Part shown: positions 5,395-16,443 of the stretch, one piece after another
How the letters are laid out: every line of letters starts with the position of its first letter
How positions within the stretch are numbered: position 1 is the first letter of the stretch
Virus genome (UHGV): UHGV-0183032
Origin: a virus
DNA length: 16,673 nucleotides
Strand: one strand, 5' to 3'
The notes under the pieces: generated by a model
Seen by the model: only the letters and a program-made list of their open reading frames with translations
Told to the model about the DNA's origin: nothing
Databases searched by the model: none
Made by a program: the position numbers and the translations under genes

Positions 5395-5404
5395 AATTCA
5401 CCTC

Positions 5405-5488
5405 TCAATATTTATTGATGATATATACGCAAGCAACAAAACTTGCACAGTATGTTAATACTTCCAACCAATCGAATAATTCTTTCAT
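5405..5488 (-). CDS. Micro-ORF 9 of array: 27-aa single-helix hydrophobic peptide (MKELFDWLEVLTYCASFVACVYIINKY)
   Basis: ATG 5488-5486 with AAAGGT 6 nt upstream, TGA at 5407-5405, 10 nt before terS. Found by hand; below the 60-aa track threshold. Confidence 0.5.
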   Translation of the reverse strand: MKELFDWLEVLTYCASFVACVYIINKY

Positions 5489-5497
5489 TGTTTACCT

Positions 5498-5566
5498 TTA
5501 CGCGAAGAAAACAATAACAGTTAACAGCGTGCATATAGCCATGATTAAGAAATCACCATCAGACAT
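5498..5566 (-). CDS. Micro-ORF 8 of array: 22-aa hydrophobic peptide (MSDGDFLIMAICTLLTVIVFFA)
   Basis: ATG 5566-5564 overlaps the stop of micro-ORF 7 (ATGTCTGA); GGGGTG 9 nt upstream. Alternative internal ATG at 5542. Confidence 0.45.
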   Translation of the reverse strand: MSDGDFLIMAICTLLTVIVFFA

Positions 5567-5633
5567 TGATAATCACCCCAATAATAACTAATGCAACGGT
5601 ACACACGATCAACATAATATCAATAGCGTTCAT
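5559..5633 (-). CDS. Micro-ORF 7 of array: 24-aa hydrophobic peptide (MNAIDIMLIVCTVALVIIGVIINV)
   Basis: ATG 5633-5631 with GGTGA 5 nt upstream; TGA at 5561-5559. Confidence 0.5.
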   Translation of the reverse strand: MNAIDIMLIVCTVALVIIGVIINV

Positions 5634-5641
5634 GCTTTCAC

Positions 5642-5710
5642 CTATTGAGCAAGCGCGGTCATAGTGAGAACAATCGCAACGATCAGGAAAAAGAAATCAA
5701 GCCATTTCAT
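5642..5710 (-). CDS. Micro-ORF 6 of array: 22-aa hydrophobic peptide (MKWLDFFFLIVAIVLTMTALAQ)
   Basis: ATG 5710-5708 overlaps the stop of micro-ORF 5 (ATGA); GGGAG 8 nt upstream. Confidence 0.5.
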   Translation of the reverse strand: MKWLDFFFLIVAIVLTMTALAQ

Positions 5711-5787
5711 TTTTTAAACTCCCGATAAACATCTACGGCAATAACTGTAATAACAGCCACCAGCAATAGCATTTCGTATGCGTTCAT
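5707..5787 (-). CDS. Micro-ORF 5 of array: 26-aa hydrophobic peptide (MNAYEMLLLVAVITVIAVDVYREFKK)
   Basis: ATG 5787-5785 with GAAGG 9 nt upstream; TGA at 5709-5707. Confidence 0.5.
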   Translation of the reverse strand: MNAYEMLLLVAVITVIAVDVYREFKK

Positions 5788-5798
5788 TGTGGATACCT

Positions 5799-5873
5799 TC
5801 AGCTTTCAATGAATATCATGATCGCCAGCCATACAGCGACGCAGGCAGAAAGGATAATTAGCGGGTCAATCAT
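5799..5873 (-). CDS. Micro-ORF 4 of array: 24-aa hydrophobic peptide (MIDPLIILSACVAVWLAIMIFIES)
   Basis: ATG 5873-5871 with GGGGTGA 5 nt upstream; TGA at 5801-5799. Confidence 0.5.
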   Translation of the reverse strand: MIDPLIILSACVAVWLAIMIFIES

Positions 5874-5878
5874 ATTTT

Positions 5879-5989
5879 TCACCCCACCAAATACTTGATA
5901 TATACGTTTATCAGCGCAACTATAATAGAACCAGCAAGAAACACAGAAACGCCGATTAATCCGGCAATGATGTAAGCGTCCATAATCAT
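5879..5989 (-). CDS. Micro-ORF 3 of array: 34-36-aa hydrophobic peptide ((MI)MDAYIIAGLIGVSVFLAGSIIVALINVYIKYLVG)
   Basis: ATG at 5989 overlaps the stop of micro-ORF 2 (TAATG); the in-frame ATG at 5983 has GGAAG 8 nt upstream and gives an MDAY N-terminus like micro-ORF 2. Confidence 0.5.
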   Translation of the reverse strand: MIMDAYIIAGLIGVSVFLAGSIIVALINVYIKYLVG

Positions 5990-6051
5990 TACTTCCACAA
6001 CAAAAACAATATTACAGCCGCCGCCATTCCGATAAATAAATAAGCGTCCAT
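5989..6051 (-). CDS. Micro-ORF 2 of array: 20-aa hydrophobic peptide (MDAYLFIGMAAAVILFLLWK)
   Basis: ATG 6051-6049 lies 2 nt after the stop of micro-ORF 1; TAA at 5991-5989. Shares the MDAY..G motif with micro-ORF 3. Confidence 0.45.
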   Translation of the reverse strand: MDAYLFIGMAAAVILFLLWK

Positions 6052-6053
6052 AA

Positions 6054-6143
6054 TCAGTCTCGCATAGACATAACTACCAGAAACAGGCAAAGGATGAATC
6101 CAGCCGCCATCCCGCCGACGAAAGTTAGTATTGACGCAATCAT
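6054..6143 (-). CDS. Micro-ORF 1 of array: 29-aa hydrophobic peptide (MIASILTFVGGMAAGFILCLFLVVMSMRD)
   Basis: ATG 6143-6141 sits 2 nt after the TGA of the HExxH gene (TGAttATG) with GAGG 8 nt upstream; codons checked by hand. Confidence 0.5.
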   Translation of the reverse strand: MIASILTFVGGMAAGFILCLFLVVMSMRD

Positions 6144-6145
6144 AA

Positions 6146-8130: not shown

Positions 8131-8160
8131 AACAAAGCAAAAACCCGGCGCGGGGCCGGG
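8131..8160 (-). terminator. Intrinsic terminator on the minus strand, directly upstream of the holin RBS (tR'-like)
   Basis: Minus strand reads CCCGGC-cccgc-GCCGGG followed by TTTTTGCTTTGTT: 6-bp GC stem, 5-nt loop, U-tract. About 13 nt separate it from the holin RBS. Confidence 0.6.
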
Positions 8161-8188
8161 TAATTACAATTTCGCATTGTTAGGAAAT

Positions 8189-8217
8189 ATTTTAATCTGT
8201 TTGTTTACGCCCTACAA
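8189..8217 (-). promoter_or_regulatory. Candidate sigma70-type promoter (late promoter P_R'-like) upstream of the terminator
   Basis: Minus strand TTGTAG, 17-nt spacer, TAAAAT; would give a roughly 50-nt leader ending at the hairpin. The -35 element is weak. Confidence 0.3.
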
Positions 8218-8224
8218 ATACGGC

Positions 8225-8401
8225 TTACGGCTTTCTATATATCAGGCCGTTATCAAGCAACATTTGCATATGCCGCCGATCCATGTCGCTTGATTCCCAA
8301 TGTGGATCGTCATCAGGTCTTATCATCACCTTATTACCTTTAAGTAAATAGACGATGTTAAATACCTTATGCAAATAGATACCATCTTCGATCTCGTTCA
8401 T
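8225..8401 (-). CDS. Hypothetical small protein, 58 aa (MNEIEDGIYLHKV...)
   Basis: Found by hand, codons verified. ATG 8401 overlaps the stop of the upstream ORF (ATGA). N-terminus IEDGIY resembles its upstream neighbour. Confidence 0.5.
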   Translation of the reverse strand: MNEIEDGIYLHKVFNIVYLLKGNKVMIRPDDDPHWESSDMDRRHMQMLLDNGLIYRKP

Positions 8402-8577
8402 AGGTCGCTAACCCTCACCAGTTCACCAGCATCAAGAAATATTTTAATTGTTTCTCGCGTCGTCTTAATGATTGGCGCTACCCACTCACCACCGCCAACG
8501 CGGATGCGAATATCATCACCTTCTACGCGGTAAAACAGCCCGTCTACTACTGTTGCGTACACCCCATCTTCAATCAT
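8398..8577 (-). CDS. Hypothetical small protein, 59 aa (MIEDGVYATVVDGLFYRVEGDD...)
   Basis: Found by hand, codons verified. AGGAG 8 nt before ATG 8577, which overlaps the stop of the upstream membrane ORF (ATGA). Confidence 0.55.
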   Translation of the reverse strand: MIEDGVYATVVDGLFYRVEGDDIRIRVGGGEWVAPIIKTTRETIKIFLDAGELVRVSDL

Positions 8578-8771
8578 TTCTTGCGCTCCTTAATAGCTCG
8601 ATTGATCTGCCCTGCCGTAGCGTCGAAGAAAGCGATAAACACAGTCACAGGCCAAAAAGGAATCTCAAGGCCGCCAGGTTCAGCTCCGCTAAACTTAATA
8701 AAACAAGACATCAGGATAGCGCCAGCGATATAAAGCAAAACAATCACAGCTATAAGGCATTCAATCATCAT
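8574..8771 (-). CDS. Small membrane protein, about 65 aa with two predicted TM helices
   Basis: ATG-ATG at 8771/8768 overlaps the stop of the upstream acidic ORF; GAGGG upstream. Helices IECLIAVIVLLYIAGAILMSCF and IPFWPVTVFIAFF. The track's longer form (start 8861) overlaps the upstream gene and is rejected. Confidence 0.55.
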   Translation of the reverse strand: MMIECLIAVIVLLYIAGAILMSCFIKFSGAEPGGLEIPFWPVTVFIAFFDATAGQINRAIKERKK

Positions 8772-9012
8772 CGCCCTCGTCTTCATGTTCAGCCAGGAAA
8801 TCATCAACGGCACGGTAAGTAACTGGAGGGATGTATTCGAAATCATCAGAATCAAGATCAAGCGTCCTGCTGTCGCCGTCGTCGTCCATCGTATTCATCC
8901 CTAACTCACCGAAAGGGCCGTACCCAATGTGGCCCAGGTATTCGCAACCAATCGTAAACCCAGGGTATTCGCCTTTACACCGGATCTTGTAAGGTTTATT
9001 TGATGCGCTCAA
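8761..9012 (-). CDS. Hypothetical protein with extremely acidic C-terminal half
   Basis: 83 aa from a TTG start at 9012 with strong GGAGGGGTGG RBS just upstream; alternative ATG at 8898 gives a 45-aa acidic peptide. C-terminal half is extremely acidic (DDDGDSRTLDLDSDDFEY...AEHEDEGDDD). Confidence 0.5.
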   Translation of the reverse strand: MSASNKPYKIRCKGEYPGFTIGCEYLGHIGYGPFGELGMNTMDDDGDSRTLDLDSDDFEYIPPVTYRAVDDFLAEHEDEGDDD

Positions 9013-9319
9013 TTTCCACCCCTCCGTTTTCGCCTTCAGTCACTTTGTATTCTGCCGCCAGTTCAGCGCCAAGCAATTCCACTTCCATATTAGCGATACC
9101 CTGGAACATCAGATAGGCAAAAACTAGGCTTTTAATTCTATCCGGGTCTTCAAGATGGTCTGCATTAAAAGGCGGTTCCGATACGTGGAAGCATTTAACA
9201 TGCGCATCGTCTTCAGTGGCTACACGGAAACATGCACTAGGTTGCCCGGCAAATTGTCCTAATCTTTCTTCGTTCGGTAAAGTGCCACGGAAAACTTTAA
9301 CGCTGATAAATTTAGACAT
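8996..9319 (-). CDS. Hypothetical protein, 107 aa
   Basis: ATG start verified; packed between neighbours in the island. Confidence 0.6.
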   Translation of the reverse strand: MSKFISVKVFRGTLPNEERLGQFAGQPSACFRVATEDDAHVKCFHVSEPPFNADHLEDPDRIKSLVFAYLMFQGIANMEVELLGAELAAEYKVTEGENGGVEIERIK

Positions 9320-9322
9320 TGT

Positions 9323-9577
9323 CTATTCTCCTTCGTAAAAAATAGCTACCAGTTCAGGATTGTTTAATGGGTTAGGGCAAGAATAAAAACCACTTCGCAA
9401 TAACCCCCTAAGCGCCTTTATTTTTCTGTGCACCGGGATTGACTCGCTTAAATAGAAATCATCTTTCCTTTTGTCATAAGGTAGCTCGTAAAACCTACCA
9501 TAATTTACGAATTGAACGACGCGGCAAAACTCACCGTCAGCCTTACTGTTGCCGCGCCATATTTTGATTATTTCCAT
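9323..9577 (-). CDS. Hypothetical protein, 84 aa
   Basis: ATG start verified; 3-nt gaps to both neighbours. Confidence 0.6.
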   Translation of the reverse strand: MEIIKIWRGNSKADGEFCRVVQFVNYGRFYELPYDKRKDDFYLSESIPVHRKIKALRGLLRSGFYSCPNPLNNPELVAIFYEGE

Positions 9578-9580
9578 AAA

Positions 9581-9880
9581 TTAAAACTCCGCACCAGGTA
9601 AGCTACGCGCTTTGTTTACCGTATCGTGCTTTAACAATAAACCAGCGTGATAATTCATAATCCCCATATTACCTACTGGTATTTCATCATTTTCTGCCTT
9701 TATTATTAACAACTGGTTTTTAGTGAAGATCCTGTCTCCATCAGTGATATATAACCAGTCGCCGCGCTTACCAACAACAACATGAGATCTGCCTAAGCTG
9801 TCTTTAAATTCATAATTACAGAAAACATCATCGTTAGGAACTTCAACAAAACAGCAAGCAATAAATTTAGCGCTTTTCAT
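9581..9880 (-). CDS. Hypothetical protein, 99 aa, possible distant member of the tandem small-protein family
   Basis: Start chosen at ATG 9880 (AAGGG 8 nt upstream); the track's ATG at 9910 lies inside a GC hairpin. Motif GDWLYITDGDRIF resembles the ITDDxGxLW motif of the 10.4-11.4 kb paralogs. Confidence 0.55.
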   Translation of the reverse strand: MKSAKFIACCFVEVPNDDVFCNYEFKDSLGRSHVVVGKRGDWLYITDGDRIFTKNQLLIIKAENDEIPVGNMGIMNYHAGLLLKHDTVNKARSLPGAEF

Positions 9881-9902
9881 GATTACACCCTTCTGATTTG
9901 AT

Positions 9903-9918
9903 GGGGCCATCCGGCCCC
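9903..9918. repeat. Perfect GC-rich hairpin (GGGGCC-atcc-GGCCCC) in a 43-bp intergenic gap
   Basis: 6-bp all-GC stem with 4-nt loop. A U-rich run follows on the plus strand (GTGTTTTAT), not the minus strand. Confidence 0.5.
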
Positions 9919-9923
9919 GTGTT

Positions 9924-10064
9924 TTATGCTTCTTCGTCTCCTTTAAACCCTAAGCACTCCGCGTACTCGTCAATGCTTAATGCTTCTTCACCTTGTGCCA
10001 GTAATTCAAAGTATCTTGCGTACAGTTCGAAAACCCAGGCCGGATATTTAGCGTTAGCGTTCAT
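9924..10064 (-). CDS. Hypothetical small protein, 46 aa (MNANAKYPAWVFELYARYFELLAQGEEALSIDEYAECLGFKGDEEA)
   Basis: Found by hand; GGGGG 6 nt before ATG 10064; fills the gap between neighbouring genes. Confidence 0.5.
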   Translation of the reverse strand: MNANAKYPAWVFELYARYFELLAQGEEALSIDEYAECLGFKGDEEA

Positions 10065-10074
10065 GGTTTCCCCC

Positions 10075-10353
10075 TTATGCCATACGTGCGAATTCAAGTG
10101 ATTTGCATTCGTAGTCTTCCTCTGCCTGTTCGATGACTGCCATCATCATTTCGTTTGCGTTGTTGAATGCGTTGCTTTGTGCGAACTTGTCGGCTCCACC
10201 TTCTTCTTCGAACTCCGCGTTGTTTGCTGCAATGTAGTGATATTCGATGTTGTTCAGGTAAGGGCTTGCAGCGTGTGCTGGGTCTTCTTTCTCCACCATC
10301 TCCCAAAATGCGTTTAAGCGAGATTCGACTTCTTTGTTAATCCAGCGTTTCAT
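10075..10353 (-). CDS. Hypothetical acidic protein, 92 aa; first gene after the predicted 10.4 kb promoter
   Basis: ATG 10353 with GGAGGG about 9 nt upstream; acidic composition (EFEEEGGAD, EQAEEDYE). Confidence 0.65.
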   Translation of the reverse strand: MKRWINKEVESRLNAFWEMVEKEDPAHAASPYLNNIEYHYIAANNAEFEEEGGADKFAQSNAFNNANEMMMAVIEQAEEDYECKSLEFARMA

Positions 10354-10388
10354 TTTTCTACCCTCCGCATCGTTCTCTCTTCAGCTTC

Positions 10389-10417
10389 TTTATAACAAAA
10401 TGGCACTGCCGAAACAA
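10389..10417 (-). promoter_or_regulatory. Candidate sigma70 promoter with extended -10 (minus strand)
   Basis: Minus strand TTGTTT, 17-nt spacer, TGt-TATAAA. Predicted start near 10382, about 30 nt before the RBS of the 10353 gene. Confidence 0.35.
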
Positions 10418-10425
10418 TGCCATTT
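10397..10425. repeat. Inverted repeat AAATGGCA-N12-TGCCATTT overlapping the candidate promoter (operator-like)
   Basis: Perfect 8-bp arms with 12-nt spacer. A GCCATTT-type motif recurs in the 16.4 kb and 6.8 kb gaps. Confidence 0.45.
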
Positions 10426-10434
10426 CGTAAACCT

Positions 10435-10450
10435 TGTGATACAGATCACA
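10435..10450. promoter_or_regulatory. Near-consensus CRP-type binding site (TGTGA-N6-TCACA)
   Basis: TGTGATACAGATCACA with flanking TT...TTT, matching the core of the Enterobacterial CRP consensus. Centred about 60 bp upstream of the predicted start. Confidence 0.4.
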
Positions 10451-10451
10451 T

Positions 10452-10676
10452 TTACGTTTCTTCCGTAAAAGTAACCTTCATCGCCCCATCCGAACTACGG
10501 ACAACATAACGACCAATACCGCCTAGCGGCCCTGCATACCATAAGTGACCGTAAGTGTCAGTCACGACGATAAACGGAAATTTAGGAGACAATCCCATCG
10601 GTTTTTCAGCCGTGTACTGTACGCCTTCCTCAAAACAGCCCAATTTCGATTCGTTACACGTTAAAATCATTTTCAT
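10452..10676 (-). CDS. Tandem small-protein family member D, 74 aa
   Basis: ATG 10676 overlaps the stop of member C (ATGA). Motif CFEEGVQY...IVVTDTYGHLWYAG. The track's longer Cys/Trp-rich form starts upstream and overlaps member C. Confidence 0.55.
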   Translation of the reverse strand: MKMILTCNESKLGCFEEGVQYTAEKPMGLSPKFPFIVVTDTYGHLWYAGPLGGIGRYVVRSSDGAMKVTFTEET

Positions 10677-10912
10677 ACCCCTACATACGAAAACGCAGCA
10701 AAAGCACCACCACCAGCACGCGCATAAACAAGCGCCGTGCCACAACCCATCTTATAAAATCGCCATAACTGCCCCTGGTCGTCAGTAATGGCATGAATAT
10801 ATTCCTGATCCTTTGCGTCAACCAATGCCGCGTCAACCTCGTAGATCTTGCCATTCTTAAAAAACGCGCTGCATCGTGAGTATGTGCACTGGTATCTATG
10901 TTTCCGATTCAT
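10673..10912 (-). CDS. Tandem small-protein family member C, 79 aa
   Basis: ATG 10912 with GAGGTG upstream. Motif FFKNGKIY...HAITDDQGQLWRFY; C-terminus GGGAFAAFSYVGV resembles member A. Confidence 0.6.
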   Translation of the reverse strand: MNRKHRYQCTYSRCSAFFKNGKIYEVDAALVDAKDQEYIHAITDDQGQLWRFYKMGCGTALVYARAGGGAFAAFSYVGV

Positions 10913-10922
10913 AGCACCTCAC

Positions 10923-11180
10923 TTATTCCGGTTTACTGCCTTCGCGGGCGCAAAACTCCGCGATCTCACGGAAATCATGCACTATGCGATAAATATACAA
11001 ACCAGCGGCGTTATTGATATGGCTAACATAAGCGAAATAAACTTTATCATCATCGCCAGTTATCGCCATTGCACCATCACCGCCCGGTGCGCCGTGGAGT
11101 TGAACGCCGCAATAGATCTTCCCTTCTTCAAAAATATTGCGGTCGCGCGTCTGCAATACCTCAAAATATAAATGTTTCAT
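10923..11180 (-). CDS. Tandem small-protein family member B, 85 aa
   Basis: ATG 11180 with GGGG 5 nt upstream (track start at 11216 is TTG). Motif IFEEGKIY...MAITGDDDKVYFAY. Confidence 0.6.
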   Translation of the reverse strand: MKHLYFEVLQTRDRNIFEEGKIYCGVQLHGAPGGDGAMAITGDDDKVYFAYVSHINNAAGLYIYRIVHDFREIAEFCAREGSKPE

Positions 11181-11190
11181 TGTTGCCCCT

Positions 11191-11403
11191 TTAATAACGT
11201 TCAAAGCTGGCAGCAAAACCTACACCGGATATTTCACCGCCTTCATAGCTCGGCCTGAATACCCATATTTCGTCATGATTATCAATCAAGGCAAGGCAAT
11301 TACTCATTGTGTGTGCTTCATTGCCATAAACGATGTGAACGTCATAAATACTCCCAATCGTGAAAACACTGTCATTGCTTGAGTATGAGCATTTAACTTG
11401 CAT
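11191..11403 (-). CDS. Tandem small-protein family member A, 70 aa
   Basis: ATG 11403 overlaps the upstream stop (TGATG). Motif VFTIGSIY...LALIDNHDEIWVF; C-terminus GVGFAASFERY. Confidence 0.6.
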   Translation of the reverse strand: MQVKCSYSSNDSVFTIGSIYDVHIVYGNEAHTMSNCLALIDNHDEIWVFRPSYEGGEISGVGFAASFERY

Positions 11404-11648
11404 CAGAAAACCCCTTTATAATCGACCGTGTATTTTGCTATCAGATTCCAGTCGCAGTAATTAAGCATGTCGCGAGGCTGCCAGCCTTTCATCCCGACCG
11501 CCCGCCGCGCAGCGTGACGGCGATAATCATCGTTATAGTCAGCTATGCACCACGGCTGGAGAACAAACATATAATTTGCTTCATTAACCAGGATAGCCAC
11601 CCGCTTTCCTGTTGCCTTGTCTTTTGCCCTGAAATAATTCACTTTCAT
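11403..11648 (-). CDS. Hypothetical protein, 81 aa
   Basis: ATG verified; overlaps the upstream gene by 4 nt. Confidence 0.6.
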   Translation of the reverse strand: MKVNYFRAKDKATGKRVAILVNEANYMFVLQPWCIADYNDDYRRHAARRAVGMKGWQPRDMLNYCDWNLIAKYTVDYKGVF

Positions 11649-11860
11649 TTTAATACCTCGTCGATCAGCATTTCTTCTTCCAGGTTAGCCGGACGTTTAC
11701 GGAATATCCCGGCAAAAACCAGGTCATCAAGTAGGTCTTTGCGTTTAAATAGCCACTCTTTCATTATTACCCCGTCATCGCTGCGATATACGACGCCGTT
11801 TTTCAAAAAATAAAAAGTGCTGGTATTTGTTTGAAGGTATAAATCTTCGTAAACGTCCAT
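11645..11860 (-). CDS. Hypothetical protein, 71 aa, with FLKNGVVY...W motif reminiscent of the tandem family
   Basis: ATG verified; motif FYFLKNGVVYRSDDGVIMKEWLF. Confidence 0.6.
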   Translation of the reverse strand: MDVYEDLYLQTNTSTFYFLKNGVVYRSDDGVIMKEWLFKRKDLLDDLVFAGIFRKRPANLEEEMLIDEVLK

Positions 11861-11864
11861 GATA

Positions 11865-12092
11865 TTAACCCTCGACTACTTGCAAGCCGCGCCCCTTATC
11901 GCCTACGAAGTCGCCCAGGCTAAACGTATATGACCACGCTGGGTTAATGTAGTAATCATCAGCACCGTGAGCGATAAGGTCTTTACCCAAAATGACGCAG
12001 GTCACATCATCAGAATGAACAACGTCTACCGTTTCCCTTACCGCGCGTTTTAATGATGGGTAGCCGTGATCGTGCAAGAATTTAACTTTCAT
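11865..12092 (-). CDS. Hypothetical protein, 75 aa
   Basis: ATG verified; 4-nt overlap with the upstream gene. Confidence 0.6.
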   Translation of the reverse strand: MKVKFLHDHGYPSLKRAVRETVDVVHSDDVTCVILGKDLIAHGADDYYINPAWSYTFSLGDFVGDKGRGLQVVEG

Positions 12093-12376
12093 ATTTCTTT
12101 CCCTTTATAAGTAACAGCATCAGCGATCAACAATACCGCCAGCAATTCACCGTCATGTAACGGGTCTGGAATAGCAAAAAATATGTCGCTGTTTTTGTCC
12201 GGCACTACTACGCGCATATTTCCCTGTTTGTCTTCATGCACGAACCACGGCTTTTCGTGTGGCTCAAACATGCCGAAAAGTAATTTAAGATCTATTTCTT
12301 CACCCTTCGTGAATAACGACACATCAGTTGTAGTGATAACTAACGCTTTCTGATCTGCTGTTTTCTTCGCTCTCAT
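12089..12376 (-). CDS. Hypothetical protein, 95 aa
   Basis: ATG verified; 4-nt overlap with the upstream gene. Confidence 0.6.
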   Translation of the reverse strand: MRAKKTADQKALVITTTDVSLFTKGEEIDLKLLFGMFEPHEKPWFVHEDKQGNMRVVVPDKNSDIFFAIPDPLHDGELLAVLLIADAVTYKGKEI

Positions 12377-12606
12377 TCCTCTGTCTCCCAGCGGTCTATG
12401 CTGATTAAAAAGTCCCGGATAGCGTGTCGCTCGTCGCGCGTCGGTTTACGCTTCCGGTAAATTTTGAAATCGAACCATTCTTTTTCTTGTTCGAAGTCCA
12501 GATCGTAAGCAAGCGCCTCGATATATCCGCAGTCGTGATACTGGTAAGCCACGCCAGCACGAACAAAAAAGCGGGTTTTATCCCGCTTGTGTTCATAGAT
12601 ACACAT
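12373..12606 (-). CDS. Hypothetical protein, about 77 aa
   Basis: Start chosen at ATG 12606 (GGGG upstream, no overlap with the upstream gene) rather than the track's ATG 12651, which overlaps by 35 nt and has GAAGG abutting the ATG. Confidence 0.5.
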   Translation of the reverse strand: MCIYEHKRDKTRFFVRAGVAYQYHDCGYIEALAYDLDFEQEKEWFDFKIYRKRKPTRDERHAIRDFLISIDRWETEE

Positions 12607-12616
12607 ATTTGCCCCA

Positions 12617-12847
12617 CTATGCAGTTGTGTAACTATCAACCAGCTTTTCATCCTTCATTCTGGAAAGCTGCATGATATTCATCGTGTAGCCGTTGTCAGA
12701 GAAAAGCCACTCCGCAGCCTTGCGACGAAAAACAATATCATCATGGTTACGTGTCCATGTAGCTATCACAACGCGTTTCCCGTTAGTGGCGAACATAGAT
12801 AACGCGTTATCAACTACGTCGATAGCCTGCCAGATTTTTAGTTCCAT
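12617..12847 (-). CDS. Hypothetical protein, 76 aa
   Basis: ATG verified. Confidence 0.55.
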   Translation of the reverse strand: MELKIWQAIDVVDNALSMFATNGKRVVIATWTRNHDDIVFRRKAAEWLFSDNGYTMNIMQLSRMKDEKLVDSYTTA

Positions 12848-13203
12848 GATTTATCTCCGTAGATTTTGAATAGTTCACACGCTTCCTGATTTTCAAGTAT
12901 ATTCATATGCAGGTCACGCAGGCGGCGCATTGTGCGGAATCGCGGTCTGAACTCCTGGCTACGTTTAATGTATTTGCCGCCAATTGAATAAATATGCCCG
13001 TATGCGTACCATCTGTTGCCTACCCATATATCATATTCTTTTCCTTCGTAATTAAATTTTATAGTTAGCTCGCCTACTTCAACTATTAACCCTTTATCAA
13101 TGATGTCATTAAGCATTTCGTCCCATTCTTTGAGGAATGGTTGCTGATAAAAACCAAAAAGCGTATTTGCAGCATGGCAAAGATAATCAATGATTATTTG
13201 CAT
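12838..13203 (-). CDS. Hypothetical protein, 121 aa
   Basis: ATG verified; largest ORF of the island. Confidence 0.65.
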   Translation of the reverse strand: MQIIIDYLCHAANTLFGFYQQPFLKEWDEMLNDIIDKGLIVEVGELTIKFNYEGKEYDIWVGNRWYAYGHIYSIGGKYIKRSQEFRPRFRTMRRLRDLHMNILENQEACELFKIYGDKSWN

Positions 13204-13207
13204 ATTA

Positions 13208-13420
13208 TCACCACATCATGTAATAAACGTTCTCGTCAGCTAATGCGTCCGCTACATCCTGCGTCATGTGCCTGGCTTCAAGGAAAAAATCCTCATCATG
13301 CCATTCACTAACAAGCATACGCGCCCATTTACGGCGGCGGCGCTTATTGTGTCGTAGATCATCAAAAGTCATTAATGCTTTGTCATATGCCCTTACAAGG
13401 CGTTTACGGTTACTTTTCAT
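13208..13420 (-). CDS. Hypothetical basic protein, about 70 aa
   Basis: Start chosen at ATG 13420 (AAGGTGG 8 nt upstream; ATGA overlap with the upstream stop); the track start at 13444 is TTG. Arg/Lys-rich (NKRRRRKWAR). Confidence 0.55.
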   Translation of the reverse strand: MKSNRKRLVRAYDKALMTFDDLRHNKRRRRKWARMLVSEWHDEDFFLEARHMTQDVADALADENVYYMMW

Positions 13421-13725
13421 TGCTCGACCCACCTTAACATCCAATTCACATCACATTTAATTGCGAATACTCTCACCGGATCAGTGCCGAATAATGGATG
13501 TGTGATAGTTTTCACTTCGTACCCAAAATAAGGAAGGTTAATAATCCTGTGTTTTTCGTGGTTGGCAGGGTATCCCCATTTAATAATCAGGCGCTCATAT
13601 TCCCGCCCTTCCAGACGTTTACGCCAATAGTCATTATAAAGCCGGTATTCCTCCACCTTCTTTCCCGCCCGGATAGCGTGGAAATATTCCCCTTTCAGAT
13701 TCAAATGCAGGTCTTTACTTGCCAT
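13417..13725 (-). CDS. Possible ASCH/PUA-like fold protein, about 102 aa
   Basis: Start chosen at ATG 13725 (AGGA 8 nt upstream); the track start at 13761 is TTG. N-terminus LHLNLKGEYFHAIRAGKKVEEYRL resembles the ASCH/DUF3850 signature from memory. Confidence 0.5.
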   Translation of the reverse strand: MASKDLHLNLKGEYFHAIRAGKKVEEYRLYNDYWRKRLEGREYERLIIKWGYPANHEKHRIINLPYFGYEVKTITHPLFGTDPVRVFAIKCDVNWMLRWVEQ

Positions 13726-13990
13726 CGCTATGATCCTGTAAACAGTCGTTATAGCCTTCAATATATCCGGTTAATCCGGTATTACTCACTGACCATTCAG
13801 CAGAACGGCGCTTGATGGCCTCGTCCATCGTGATTTCACCTTTGCGATGACATCCGGTATCAATGTAACGGTTGACAACTGAAGATAACCGCCCGCGTAG
13901 CTGTTGTGTTCCGGCGTAATGACGGGCCGTTTCCGTCAGATCGTTAACCAACTGGCGGTAAATATGCTCTTTTAATTTAGGCTTCATCAT
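13715..13990 (-). CDS. Hypothetical protein, about 91 aa
   Basis: ATG-ATG at 13990/13987 with GGTGA upstream; the track start at 13999 is GTG. Confidence 0.55.
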   Translation of the reverse strand: MMKPKLKEHIYRQLVNDLTETARHYAGTQQLRGRLSSVVNRYIDTGCHRKGEITMDEAIKRRSAEWSVSNTGLTGYIEGYNDCLQDHSDGK

Positions 13991-14177
13991 CGTCACCACG
14001 CTTGTAAATTTTTACAGGCTTAATAGGGATGGCGGGCAATTCGCCTTCATTTAACGCGCTTGCCATACCCAATATTAAGCGTGCTTCAGCACCAGTGACC
14101 TTCTTACACCATGCGCCGCCTGTTTTATCTTCGAATAAGATAACGGCAAACTGATCGTTTATTTCCAGCTTATCCAT
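13977..14177 (-). CDS. Hypothetical protein, 66 aa
   Basis: ATG 14177 lies 1 nt from the stop of the Q-like gene. Confidence 0.6.
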   Translation of the reverse strand: MDKLEINDQFAVILFEDKTGGAWCKKVTGAEARLILGMASALNEGELPAIPIKPVKIYKRGDDDEA

Positions 14178-14905
14178 TATTCACCCCGTGTCACTCGTTT
14201 GATTTCGCTTTCCGCGCGGGCCTCTTCTTTGAATAGCTCCGCTATGGCGTCTTCATAGAAAACCCGGTATTTCTTCCACCATGTTGATCGGCTTACCGGA
14301 AAAACAAGCTGATTAACCGCCTGCCGGACGAGATCTACCGGGAAACGCGAGTACCCACGCCCGCCGCAATGCTGGCACGTTTTGAATACTGGCATTTCCG
14401 CCGCTTCGCTGGCTGCTTTATCCGGTACTTCGCCACGGCCCTTACACCGCTGGCAATGGTTTTTAACGTAGCCTTTGCCGCCGCACCGTGCGCAAATTGT
14501 TGATGTGTATTTGCAATATGGATTTGGTAAATGCCCGTGACCGCCGCACTTAGGGCAAACTTTTTCGGTCGCTGCACTCTGGCAGTAATCCCGAAACGCG
14601 AAAACGGAAACAAGAATAATAAGATCATTGCGTTGTGCCTCGTTTAACTCCATCACGTATTCGTAATCTTTCGCCATAGCCCTTAAACGCTCTGTAAGCA
14701 AAACTACGGCCCTGTGTTTTTCGGCTTGTGATAGTTCCATCTTCCCTAAAAAAGCGCTATATCCAAGCTCTACGCGCGATTGCGCCATACCCGCAGCGGT
14801 TAGCGCATCCGTCGTATTAAGAGCGTCCGGGGACGTGCCCCGGCTTTCGTCAGATAATCGCGGTGATTTAGGAAAGTGGAATTTTAGAATGGATTCTAAA
14901 TTCAT
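14177..14905 (-). CDS. Putative late-gene antitermination protein Q-like, with four DnaJ-type CxxCxGxG zinc-finger repeats
   Basis: 242 aa with CPKCGGHG, CARCGGKG, CQRCKGRG and CQHCGGRG. Sits after the nin/RusA module, where lambdoid phages carry Q. Family assignment is from memory of Q-type proteins of enterobacterial prophages. Confidence 0.5.
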   Translation of the reverse strand: MNLESILKFHFPKSPRLSDESRGTSPDALNTTDALTAAGMAQSRVELGYSAFLGKMELSQAEKHRAVVLLTERLRAMAKDYEYVMELNEAQRNDLIILVSVFAFRDYCQSAATEKVCPKCGGHGHLPNPYCKYTSTICARCGGKGYVKNHCQRCKGRGEVPDKAASEAAEMPVFKTCQHCGGRGYSRFPVDLVRQAVNQLVFPVSRSTWWKKYRVFYEDAIAELFKEEARAESEIKRVTRGE

Positions 14906-16405: not shown

Positions 16406-16420
16406 TGTGATCCACATCAC
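16406..16420. promoter_or_regulatory. Near-consensus CRP-type site (TGTGA-N6-TCACg), flanked by GCGCCATT/ACGCCATTTT repeats
   Basis: TGTGATCCACATCAC matches 9 of 10 core positions. Centred about 60 bp upstream of the predicted start, the same spacing as the 10.4 kb site. Confidence 0.4.
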
Positions 16421-16443
16421 GCAATGACGCCATTTTGTAAACT

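Follow-up and report, generated by a model that had tools for sequence, protein, structure and literature searches.

Location and general features

The window is the whole stretch of DNA that was analysed, 16,673 nucleotides (nt) of the virus genome UHGV-0183032, and the subject of this report is an island of 24 small genes at positions 8225 to 14177 of it, between a gene for a Q-type antiterminator and the lysis genes. All genes of the window, and all of its long open reading frames (ORFs), are on the minus strand. In the order of transcription, the island is preceded by a NinF-like gene, the genes for NinG and RusA, a 60-amino-acid gene and Q (14905-14177), and is followed by a 106-nt gap, the holin gene (8118-7918), the endolysin gene and Rz with an embedded Rz1. 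A gene for a 180-amino-acid protein lies further downstream, and then the terminase, portal and head genes. A first-pass annotation, made from the sequence without database searches, had taken the flanks for a Q-like gene and a lysis cassette, and both identifications were upheld, Q by its matches to PF03589 (9.2e-30) and to lambda Q in PDB entry 7UBM (3.1e-36), and the holin by its match to PF16080, with the endolysin and Rz/Rz1 genes behind it.

The DNA of the window is 84-90 % identical to that of the mEp021-like “mEpimmI” coliphages MagusPhagus, mEp010, mEp044, mEp554, mEp013, mEp515 and mEp021, and matching prophages were found in 35 of 5,426 complete Escherichia coli genomes. According to a 2025 paper, the mEpimmI phages are Nus-dependent, encode a Q-like protein and the N-like antiterminator Gp17, and match the lambdoid phages in their frequency in human gut samples (PMC11893012). 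About half of all mEpimmI genes were assigned there to a “flexible” set, mostly located in variable regions; the Q-to-holin region was not analysed, and the plaque-forming phage mEp021 was propagated on strain W3110 (PMC11893012).

Gene content of the island

The 24 genes encode proteins of 46 to 121 amino acids (median 78) with a coding density of 96.7 % over the 5,953 bases of the island, which makes up about a tenth of the phage genome. Position 14177 is the A common to the Q stop codon and the ATG of the first gene (TAATG), and position 8225 is the final base of the stop codon of the last. Fourteen of the 24 junctions overlap (seven by the 4 nt of ATGA, two by the 1 nt of TAATG, five by more), eight are gaps of 3-10 nt, and a hairpin is present in each of the remaining two gaps, which are longer (98 and 43 nt). 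Shine-Dalgarno motifs of the GGAG/GAGG type stand 5-10 nt ahead of most starts. The first-pass annotation had described a tightly packed island of small ORFs with exactly these borders and this size range, and had read the frequent ATGA/TAATG overlaps as a sign of translational coupling; the packing fits coupling in polycistronic units. Its count of about 27 ORFs was too high, as the surplus consists of nested ORFs: the remaining minus-strand ORFs of at least 30 amino acids all lie out of frame within the 24 genes. Public annotations list 25 genes in MagusPhagus and 21-26 in RefSeq prophages.

Related loci were collected by a search with Q, which returned 45 IMG/VR loci with flanks; with the window, MagusPhagus and mEp021 added, and two loci that end before the holin removed, 46 Q-to-holin intervals were available, and the presence or absence of each gene was scored by tblastn in 45 relatives. 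Comparison with distinct orthologs showed purifying selection in 23 of the 24 genes, with nonsynonymous-to-synonymous ratios (pN/pS) of 0.03-0.43 and a strong third-position excess; g23 has no estimate, its sole ungapped ortholog being identical. The island genes are real and constrained, given these ratios and the Shine-Dalgarno motifs at most starts. Three start sites were refined, those of g07 (Met16), g18 (MKSAKF) and g22 (near Met26-32). The genes are as follows, from the upstream border on; all PHROG families named are listed in that database as of unknown function.

14177..14905, minus strand: Q antiterminator, lambda-Q family; upstream border of the island
13977..14177, minus strand: g01, 66 amino acids, acidic; start overlaps the Q stop (TAATG); phrog_35000; in 41 of 45 loci, as two alleles (55 % and 85-100 % identity); pN/pS 0.12
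13715..13990, minus strand: g02, 91 amino acids; phrog_29262; in 38 of 45 loci; pN/pS 0.16; its N-terminal 40-50 residues recur within larger PHROG families
13417..13725, minus strand: g03, 102 amino acids, ASCH-like (PUA-like, putative RNA-binding); in 35 of 45 loci
13208..13420, minus strand: g04, 70 amino acids, basic, with the arginine-rich stretch RHNKRRRRKWAR; matches the C-terminal half of the phrog_8758 profile; in 41 of 45 loci; pN/pS 0.20
12838..13203, minus strand: g05, 121 amino acids; widespread unnamed family of small proteins; in 44 of 45 loci
12617..12847, minus strand: g06, 76 amino acids, mEp021 gp38; phrog_38280; universal (45 of 45 loci, 79-93 % identity); pN/pS 0.18
12373..12606, minus strand: g07, 77 amino acids, mEp021 gp39; start placed at Met16 of the longest ORF, where the alignment with phrog_30442 begins (residue 16); universal (45 of 45 loci); pN/pS 0.15
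12089..12376, minus strand: g08, 95 amino acids, variable; phrog_33175; in 28 of 45 loci; pN/pS 0.12
11865..12092, minus strand: g09, 75 amino acids, mEp021 gp40; phrog_5009; universal (45 of 45 loci)
11645..11860, minus strand: g10, 71 amino acids; universal (45 of 45 loci); pN/pS 0.07, among the most constrained
11403..11648, minus strand: g11, 81 amino acids, basic; phrog_38609; universal (45 of 45 loci); pN/pS 0.15
10452..11403, minus strand: g12 to g15, the rarest module (g12 11191-11403, g13 10923-11180, g14 10673-10912, g15 10452-10676); g12 and g14 are paralogs and both match phrog_31142, g13 and g15 match no PHROG; in 15-21 of 45 loci; pN/pS 0.14-0.28
10075-10353, minus strand: g16, 92 amino acids, isoelectric point (pI) 4.4; phrog_7287; in 15 of 45 loci
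9924-10064, minus strand: g17, 46 amino acids, pI 4.1; phrog_22232; in 28 of 45 loci
9581-9880, minus strand: g18, 99 amino acids from MKSAKF; in 31 of 45 loci; pN/pS 0.27; start chosen from the MagusPhagus annotation and from relatives in which the internal element described below stands directly before ATGAAAAGC
9323-9577, minus strand: g19, 84 amino acids; in 27 of 45 loci; pN/pS 0.06
8996-9319, minus strand: g20, 107 amino acids; in 42 of 45 loci; pN/pS 0.43
8761-9012, minus strand: g21, 83 amino acids, TTG start, pI 4.1; phrog_25234
8574-about 8786, minus strand: g22, membrane protein; phrog_10061 aligned from residue 31
8398-8577, minus strand: g23, paralog of g24; phrog_15318
8225-8401, minus strand: g24, paralog of g23; phrog_15318

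The general character of the products had been largely foreseen. Basic proteins (g03, g04, g11 and g22) and paralog sets are present, the latter being g23/g24 (98.9 % probability by hhalign) and g12/g14 (88 %), with every other pair of the small proteins below 35 %. Very acidic proteins are also present, although they number three (g16, g17 and g21, pI 4.1-4.4) and not two as first proposed. The supposed protein with two transmembrane segments is the membrane protein g22; only one of its hydrophobic segments is strong (residues 26-60 of the long ORF), and the second is weaker.

Variability among related loci

Across the 46 loci the Q-to-holin interval ranges from 2.0 kb in mEp021 to 6.8 kb, and what is conserved is Q (85-98 % amino acid identity), the holin and the lysozyme. 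Clustering of all ORFs of the 46 intervals gave only 29 clusters, the order of which is strictly conserved, and each island carries some of these roughly 30 families in the common order and is not an open insertion hotspot. Below the universal tier of g06, g07, g09, g10 and g11 stand g05, g20, g01 and g04 (44, 42, 41 and 41 of 45 loci), and the rarest tier is formed by g14 and g15 (21 of 45) and g12, g13 and g16 (15 of 45). Phage mEp021 retains eight of the 24 genes, namely the five universal ones, g18, a diverged g19 and g24, and 15 island genes are absent from the shortest IMG/VR relatives. Because mEp021 is a plaque-forming phage grown on W3110, the 16 genes that it lacks are dispensable on K-12, as far as natural variants show. 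Compared with one relative, L006, genes g08-g24 of the window are 100 % identical, g01-g07 are 64-97 % identical and g02 is absent, and such mosaic identity patterns point to recombination within the island.

The first-pass annotation had regarded the island as the part of the genome most likely to hold host-takeover or anti-defence functions, and had named comparison with the closest relatives as a check on this. The comparison shows variable content with internal breakpoints, and the gene set as a whole is not universally conserved, five of its genes being so; an accessory character of the island is supported by this variability and by the range of interval lengths. Cargo that is not found in the window comprises a 136-amino-acid zinc-finger protein in 20 loci and a PAPS-reductase-domain protein of 274-276 amino acids (PF01507, 2.4e-09) in L009, L027 and L029. 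The latter sits between g11 and g17, in the place of the g12-g16 module, and is the only enzyme-like cargo seen in the hotspot.

Putative late promoter and placement of transcription

The 106-nt gap between the island and the holin gene contains a block that resembles the late promoter of lambda, with the following pieces.

8135..8217, minus strand: putative late-promoter cassette of four pieces, between g24 and the holin ATG (8118)
8217-8212, minus strand: -35-like hexamer TTGTAG
8194-8189, minus strand: -10 hexamer TAAAAT
8181-8176, minus strand: -10-like pause element AACAAT
8161-8143 and U-run, minus strand: terminator with the stem ACCCGGCCCCGCGCCGGGT, then TTTTT (terminator scan)

The spacing is TTGTAG-17-TAAAAT-7-AACAAT, followed by the terminator, the holin Shine-Dalgarno sequence and the ATG, and that of lambda PR' is TTGACT-17-TAAATT-6-AACGAT. 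A near-invariant element of 105 bp stands just ahead of the holin gene; from AAACAAA to the holin ATG, hardly any change is seen in the 29 distinct versions found in the 46 loci, whatever gene lies upstream, and also in the two loci whose holin is only 54 % identical. The promoter-like, pause and terminator elements lie 17 nt before the holin Shine-Dalgarno sequence. The motif TAAAAT-N7-AACAAT occurs in exactly one copy per locus, on the coding strand, and together with the terminator lies 8-90 nt past the last island gene. This is 5.96 kb beyond the Q stop in the window and 2.0-6.8 kb from Q in the relatives. In the lambda-Q family, PR' comes directly after the Q gene, and behind it lie a sigma-dependent pause element, a terminator and then the late genes (PMC9388147). 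Here there is no room for a promoter directly after Q, because the Q stop overlaps the g01 start. It appears, therefore, that the Q-dependent late unit would start after the island and that the island would be the distal part of the early rightward operon, probably outside the late region; lying upstream of the late promoter, it would be a nin-like extension of the early operon and not late-operon cargo.

The opposite placement would put a Q-dependent late promoter at the beginning of the island or ahead of it, and the products would be made late, along with the lysis and virion proteins. The position of the island between Q and the lysis genes is indeed that of the cargo of Shiga toxin (Stx) phages, a sequence TAAGCT-N7-AACGAT stands 5 nt past the Q stop, and the product of g10 has been reported in virions, which fits late synthesis. 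The look-alike motif after Q was, however, rejected as a chance occurrence: it is part of the g01 coding sequence, its synonymous positions vary, and neither mEp021 nor the second, divergent g01 allele has it. Given also the TAATG overlap, which leaves no intergenic space, and the conserved block of promoter-like, pause and terminator elements at the downstream end of the island, late expression of the island is judged unlikely. A strong terminator between island and holin would make little sense if both shared an upstream start.

A predicted long-range stem between the PR' leader and the holin Shine-Dalgarno sequence was discarded, as the TTTCC/TTACC and GGAAA/GGTAA versions of its two sides combine freely in relatives, and the subtype of Q does not correlate with the upstream half of the promoter block among the relatives. 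Q itself differs from lambda Q (207 amino acids) by an insert of about 35 residues (about 115-150), so that the alignment with 7UBM runs in two blocks (query 1-114 and 150-240) and skips residues 115-149. By the insert the CxxCxGxG zinc ribbon is doubled, and the resulting four CxxCxGxG motifs resemble the central domain of DnaJ. The zinc-ribbon “arm” is the part of lambda Q that touches the Q-binding element, and its doubling in the window suggests a different geometry of the DNA site.

Internal element and other signals

A second candidate control element, which splits the island in two, is located in the 98-nt gap that separates g15 from g16. It is the only internal intergenic element, the other junctions being too tight for promoter or terminator signals.

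10395..10450, minus strand: internal intergenic element
10450-10435, minus strand: CRP-core palindrome TGTGATCTGTATCACA, perfect, with AAA flanks; the only perfect TGTGA-N6-TCACA in the window
10428-10395, minus strand: RNA hairpin of 15 bp with a UUCG loop, then UAUAAAG (U-rich tail)

The predicted fold energy of the hairpin is -26 kcal/mol (z = -5.0). The element is present as a single copy in 36 of the 46 loci, always before g16, g17 or g18. Among 23 distinct variants of the stem, 344 of 345 stem cells are paired, and seven of the 15 pairs vary, solely by wobble-preserving transitions, a pattern that indicates selection on the sense-strand RNA. The most economical reading of the element is a terminator or processing hairpin that an antiterminated polymerase would pass; it may, in addition, serve as a class-I CRP-dependent promoter.

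Were such a promoter active in the prophage, part of the island, notably g16-g24, could consist of lysogenic-conversion morons whose products benefit the host, for example by exclusion of other phages or through a membrane function of g22. A TGtTATAAA extended -10 predicts a transcription start about 61 bp past the centre of the CRP palindrome, the element keeps its one place before different genes, the preceding unit could end, as in classical morons, at the hairpin that directly precedes the putative -10, and g22 is a membrane protein. Against this, about half of the loci have a degenerate right CRP half-site (ACCCCGCA), the candidate -10 does not end in the conserved T and was not listed in the promoter scan, and the hairpin overlaps the -35/spacer region. 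Ten loci have no element, some of them still with g18-g24, the genes past it are coupled as tightly as those before it, and PADLOC matched none of the 24 proteins. An origin of this half of the island as morons is thus improbable, about to the same extent as its late expression.

Several other signals were noted. A second CRP-like site, TGTGATCCACATCACG, with one mismatch, is located at 16406-16421, in the intergenic space upstream of the NinF-like gene, and many relatives have a perfect TGTGA-N6-TCACA in its place (about position 8485 of those loci). The 43-nt gap between g17 and g18 contains a GC-rich hairpin, GGGGCC-N4-GGCCCC (9901-9920), which has a U-run only on the plus strand and so looks like a terminator of antisense transcription that enters the island. 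A terminator-like hairpin with U-run, AAGCGGGATAAAACCCGCTTTTTTGTT, lies on the minus strand at 12569-12588 and falls inside the coding part of g07, one of the universal genes. Rfam and tRNA scans of the island gave no RNA genes. Outside the island, about 750 nt of AT-rich DNA (GC content 0.39) at 5400-6145, between the 180-amino-acid gene and the small terminase subunit gene, contain no long ORF and only tiny hydrophobic ORFs of 39 (5879-5998) and 33 amino acids (5989-6090); this segment might be the seat of cos/pac sites or of another promoter.

Homologs and candidate functions

None of the 24 island proteins matched Pfam, NCBIfam or PADLOC models, and all 24 concatenated gave nothing against the PDB at E<=1, with no likeness to a solved anti-defence protein. 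Twenty of the 24 match PHROGs in the “unknown function” category, the sole exception being that g05 has a weak secondary match (1.1e-05) to a family which belongs to the moron/host-takeover category and is annotated “membrane protein”. Single proteins and a profile of 71 g05 sequences likewise found nothing significant in the PDB, and the confident AlphaFold models of g05 (predicted local distance difference test score 88.4) and g10 have no significant structural neighbour. The first-pass annotation had likewise recognised nothing except a possible ASCH-like protein, and g03, the protein in question, is the one exception here as well. It matches phrog_625 (4.5e-36), its orthologs are named “ASCH domain-containing” or “RNA-binding protein” in RefSeq/GenBank, and a weak match to PDB entry 2Z0T (E=0.55) extends across its GxKxxExR motif; the Pfam ASCH model gave no match at E<=0.01.

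The distribution of homologs differs between genes. Those of g03 were found in 332 phage records, and at least three of them overlap or adjoin eaA in P22-like or Stx-type phages. The g05 family is broad and unnamed (197 cluster representatives), and its member in Edwardsiella phage GF-2 lies within the nin region. For g09, homologs of 42 % identity are present in about 119 further records, from rV5-like Vequintavirinae coliphages and some phages labelled Campylobacter, in small-ORF arrays; for g16, homologs of 61 % identity are present in 126 records, almost all of rV5-like coliphages and some again labelled Campylobacter. The rV5-like phages are virulent and have genomes of about 137 kb, against about 54 kb for the phage group of the window. 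Since temperate and virulent phages of one host, so different in size, share g09 and g16, host-directed roles of the two proteins are hinted at. An anti-defence or host-takeover role of the island is a plausible candidate function, with indirect support from this sharing and from the places of the g03 and g05 homologs in ea and nin regions of other temperate phages. About 18 GenBank “Campylobacter phage” records (MG065644, MG065674, MG065677, MG065682 and MG065684 among them) carry g09/g16 homologs; of those listed, most measure 135-143 kb, their identity is the same as that of the E. coli rV5-like phages, and the labels look doubtful.

Word-indexed searches with g09, g10 and g11 returned close relatives only, and the homologs of g10 and g11 come from E. 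coli wherever an organism is named. Gp41 of mEp021, the ortholog of g10, has been reported in virions purified on caesium chloride (CsCl), but this is weak evidence of virion association, because the mass spectrometry allowed one peptide per protein at a false discovery rate of 4 % and an Ssb protein was also scored “structural”. The g10 protein exists in two C-terminal versions, of 71 and 82 amino acids, owing to a small indel by which the reading frame runs on into the beginning of g11 (11645-11660); both are common in E. coli prophages, and Gp41 is the 82-amino-acid form.

Interpretation

With a rough probability of 0.55, the island is taken to be a phage-group-specific and largely dispensable accessory array that belongs to the early operon, resembling the nin region but placed downstream of Q. 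RNA polymerase from the early rightward promoter would be made resistant to termination by the N-like Gp17 and would then read the replication genes, the genes for NinG, RusA and Q, and the 24 island genes in one or two polycistronic messages, with the ATGA/TAATG overlaps coupling their translation. Polymerase that lacks antitermination would be stopped by the hairpin at 10428-10395 and by the strong terminator at 8161-8138. The Q-dependent late unit would begin past the island, at the PR'-like promoter, pause element and terminator before the holin gene. The products, predicted to be small single-domain proteins, would for the most part bind proteins of the host or of competing phages early in infection, and g06, g07, g09, g10 and g11 probably serve a function closer to the phage itself. 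The identity of the promoter, the early timing and the host-directed roles are all deduced from sequence comparison; the g05 homolog in the nin region of GF-2 and the g03 homologs beside eaA speak for genes of the early type.

Several observations weigh against this interpretation. The grounds for the promoter assignment are sequence resemblance and conservation, about a third of the relatives have no recognisable -35 hexamer ahead of TAAAAT, and the promoter scan of the window did not list the TAAAAT site. Lambda Q acts preferentially in cis, beside its own gene, and a separation of 2-7 kb between Q and its site is unusual for the lambda-Q family. The five universal genes fit a core role better than an accessory one, and one of them, g10, is reported as virion-associated. 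The small closed pool and the fixed order are unlike the open turnover typical of counter-defence hotspots, and no island protein resembles a known host-takeover or anti-defence protein in PADLOC, in the PDB or, for the modelled proteins, in the fold search.

A more elaborate version is tentative and has clearly the lower probability: the island would be a reservoir of early, host-directed effectors with the acidic, mimic-like proteins g16, g17 and g21 and a virion-delivered g10, Q would act in trans over 2-7 kb, and the conserved internal hairpin, possibly with CRP input, would control the array. Less probable again, and below the two alternatives weighed above, is that the island genes are necessary small factors of replication, regulation or morphogenesis whose variability is only allelic. 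Such core functions would agree with the presence of five genes in every relative and of g05 and g20 in nearly all, with the detection of g10 in purified mEp021 virions, and with the fixed order and small pool. They do not agree with the complete absence of 16 genes from the viable mEp021 and of 15 from the shortest relatives, with the occurrence of g12-g16 in only a third to half of the loci, or with the sharing of g09 and g16 with virulent rV5-like myophages, and the virion evidence for g10 is weak. That many of the ORFs arose by chance in DNA that is non-coding or decaying can practically be dismissed, for although curated families match none of them and several proteins have fewer than 60 amino acids, the third-position excess and pN/pS values refute chance ORFs, and the PHROG matches, the two confident models and the consistent Shine-Dalgarno motifs and stop/start overlaps point the same way.

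Seen as an accessory early array, the island separates into the five universal genes and about nineteen optional ones, among which those common to virulent coliphages can be singled out; early rather than late expression is predicted, and two conserved candidate control elements are indicated. If the promoter assignment is true, the locus would be a natural case of a lambda-type Q acting far from its own gene, with a bearing on the long-standing cis preference of lambda Q. In the effector-reservoir version, insertion of the array would, in addition, have separated Q from its loading site in this phage family.

Comparison with known systems

Counter-defence and takeover arrays, such as anti-CRISPR loci, the T7 early region and coliphage accessory regions, also consist of small, packed genes with fast turnover. 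The acidic island proteins of 46-92 amino acids are candidate nucleic-acid mimics of the kind found there, and genes are likewise common to unrelated phages of the same host, as g09 and g16 are to the rV5-like phages. By its sequence, the island is not recognisable as a defence or anti-defence locus.

In Stx and other lambdoid phages, cargo (stx, tRNAs, morons) is carried between Q and the lysis genes; it has the same gross map position as the island and is also variable among close relatives. Stx-type cargo lies downstream of PR'/tR' and is Q-dependent, whereas here the conserved promoter-like and terminator block is downstream of the island genes, and no toxins, tRNAs or recognisable morons were found in the island.

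The lambda Q cassette has in common with the window a homologous Q, a hexamer, putatively a -10 in the window, followed after 7 nt (6 in lambda) by the -10-like AACAAT (AACGAT in lambda), and an intrinsic terminator directly before the first lysis gene. It starts about 40 bp past Q in lambda, whereas 2.0-6.8 kb of genes intervene here; the predicted terminated RNA is about 45 nt here and 194 nt in lambda, and the zinc-ribbon arm of Q is doubled and the -35 weak or absent in the present group.

The closest likeness is to the nin region of lambda, P22 and other lambdoid phages. In both, stops and starts overlap between small ORFs that are mostly uncharacterised, the genes are largely dispensable, and different relatives carry, in mosaic fashion, ordered selections from one pool. 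The nin region belongs to the rightward early operon and comes after the replication genes, a placement that is also predicted for the island. Within the nin region are internal terminators that require N-type antitermination, for which the island has a candidate. The g05 family occurs in the nin region of GF-2, and NinF-like, NinG and RusA genes stand just upstream of Q in the window. The island differs in being downstream of Q, the nin region being located between the replication genes and Q, in being two to three times the size of lambda nin, in having five group-universal members and in that none of its proteins matches a Nin family in Pfam or NCBIfam. On these comparisons the island would be of a known kind, a phage accessory early-gene array, with an unusual position relative to Q.

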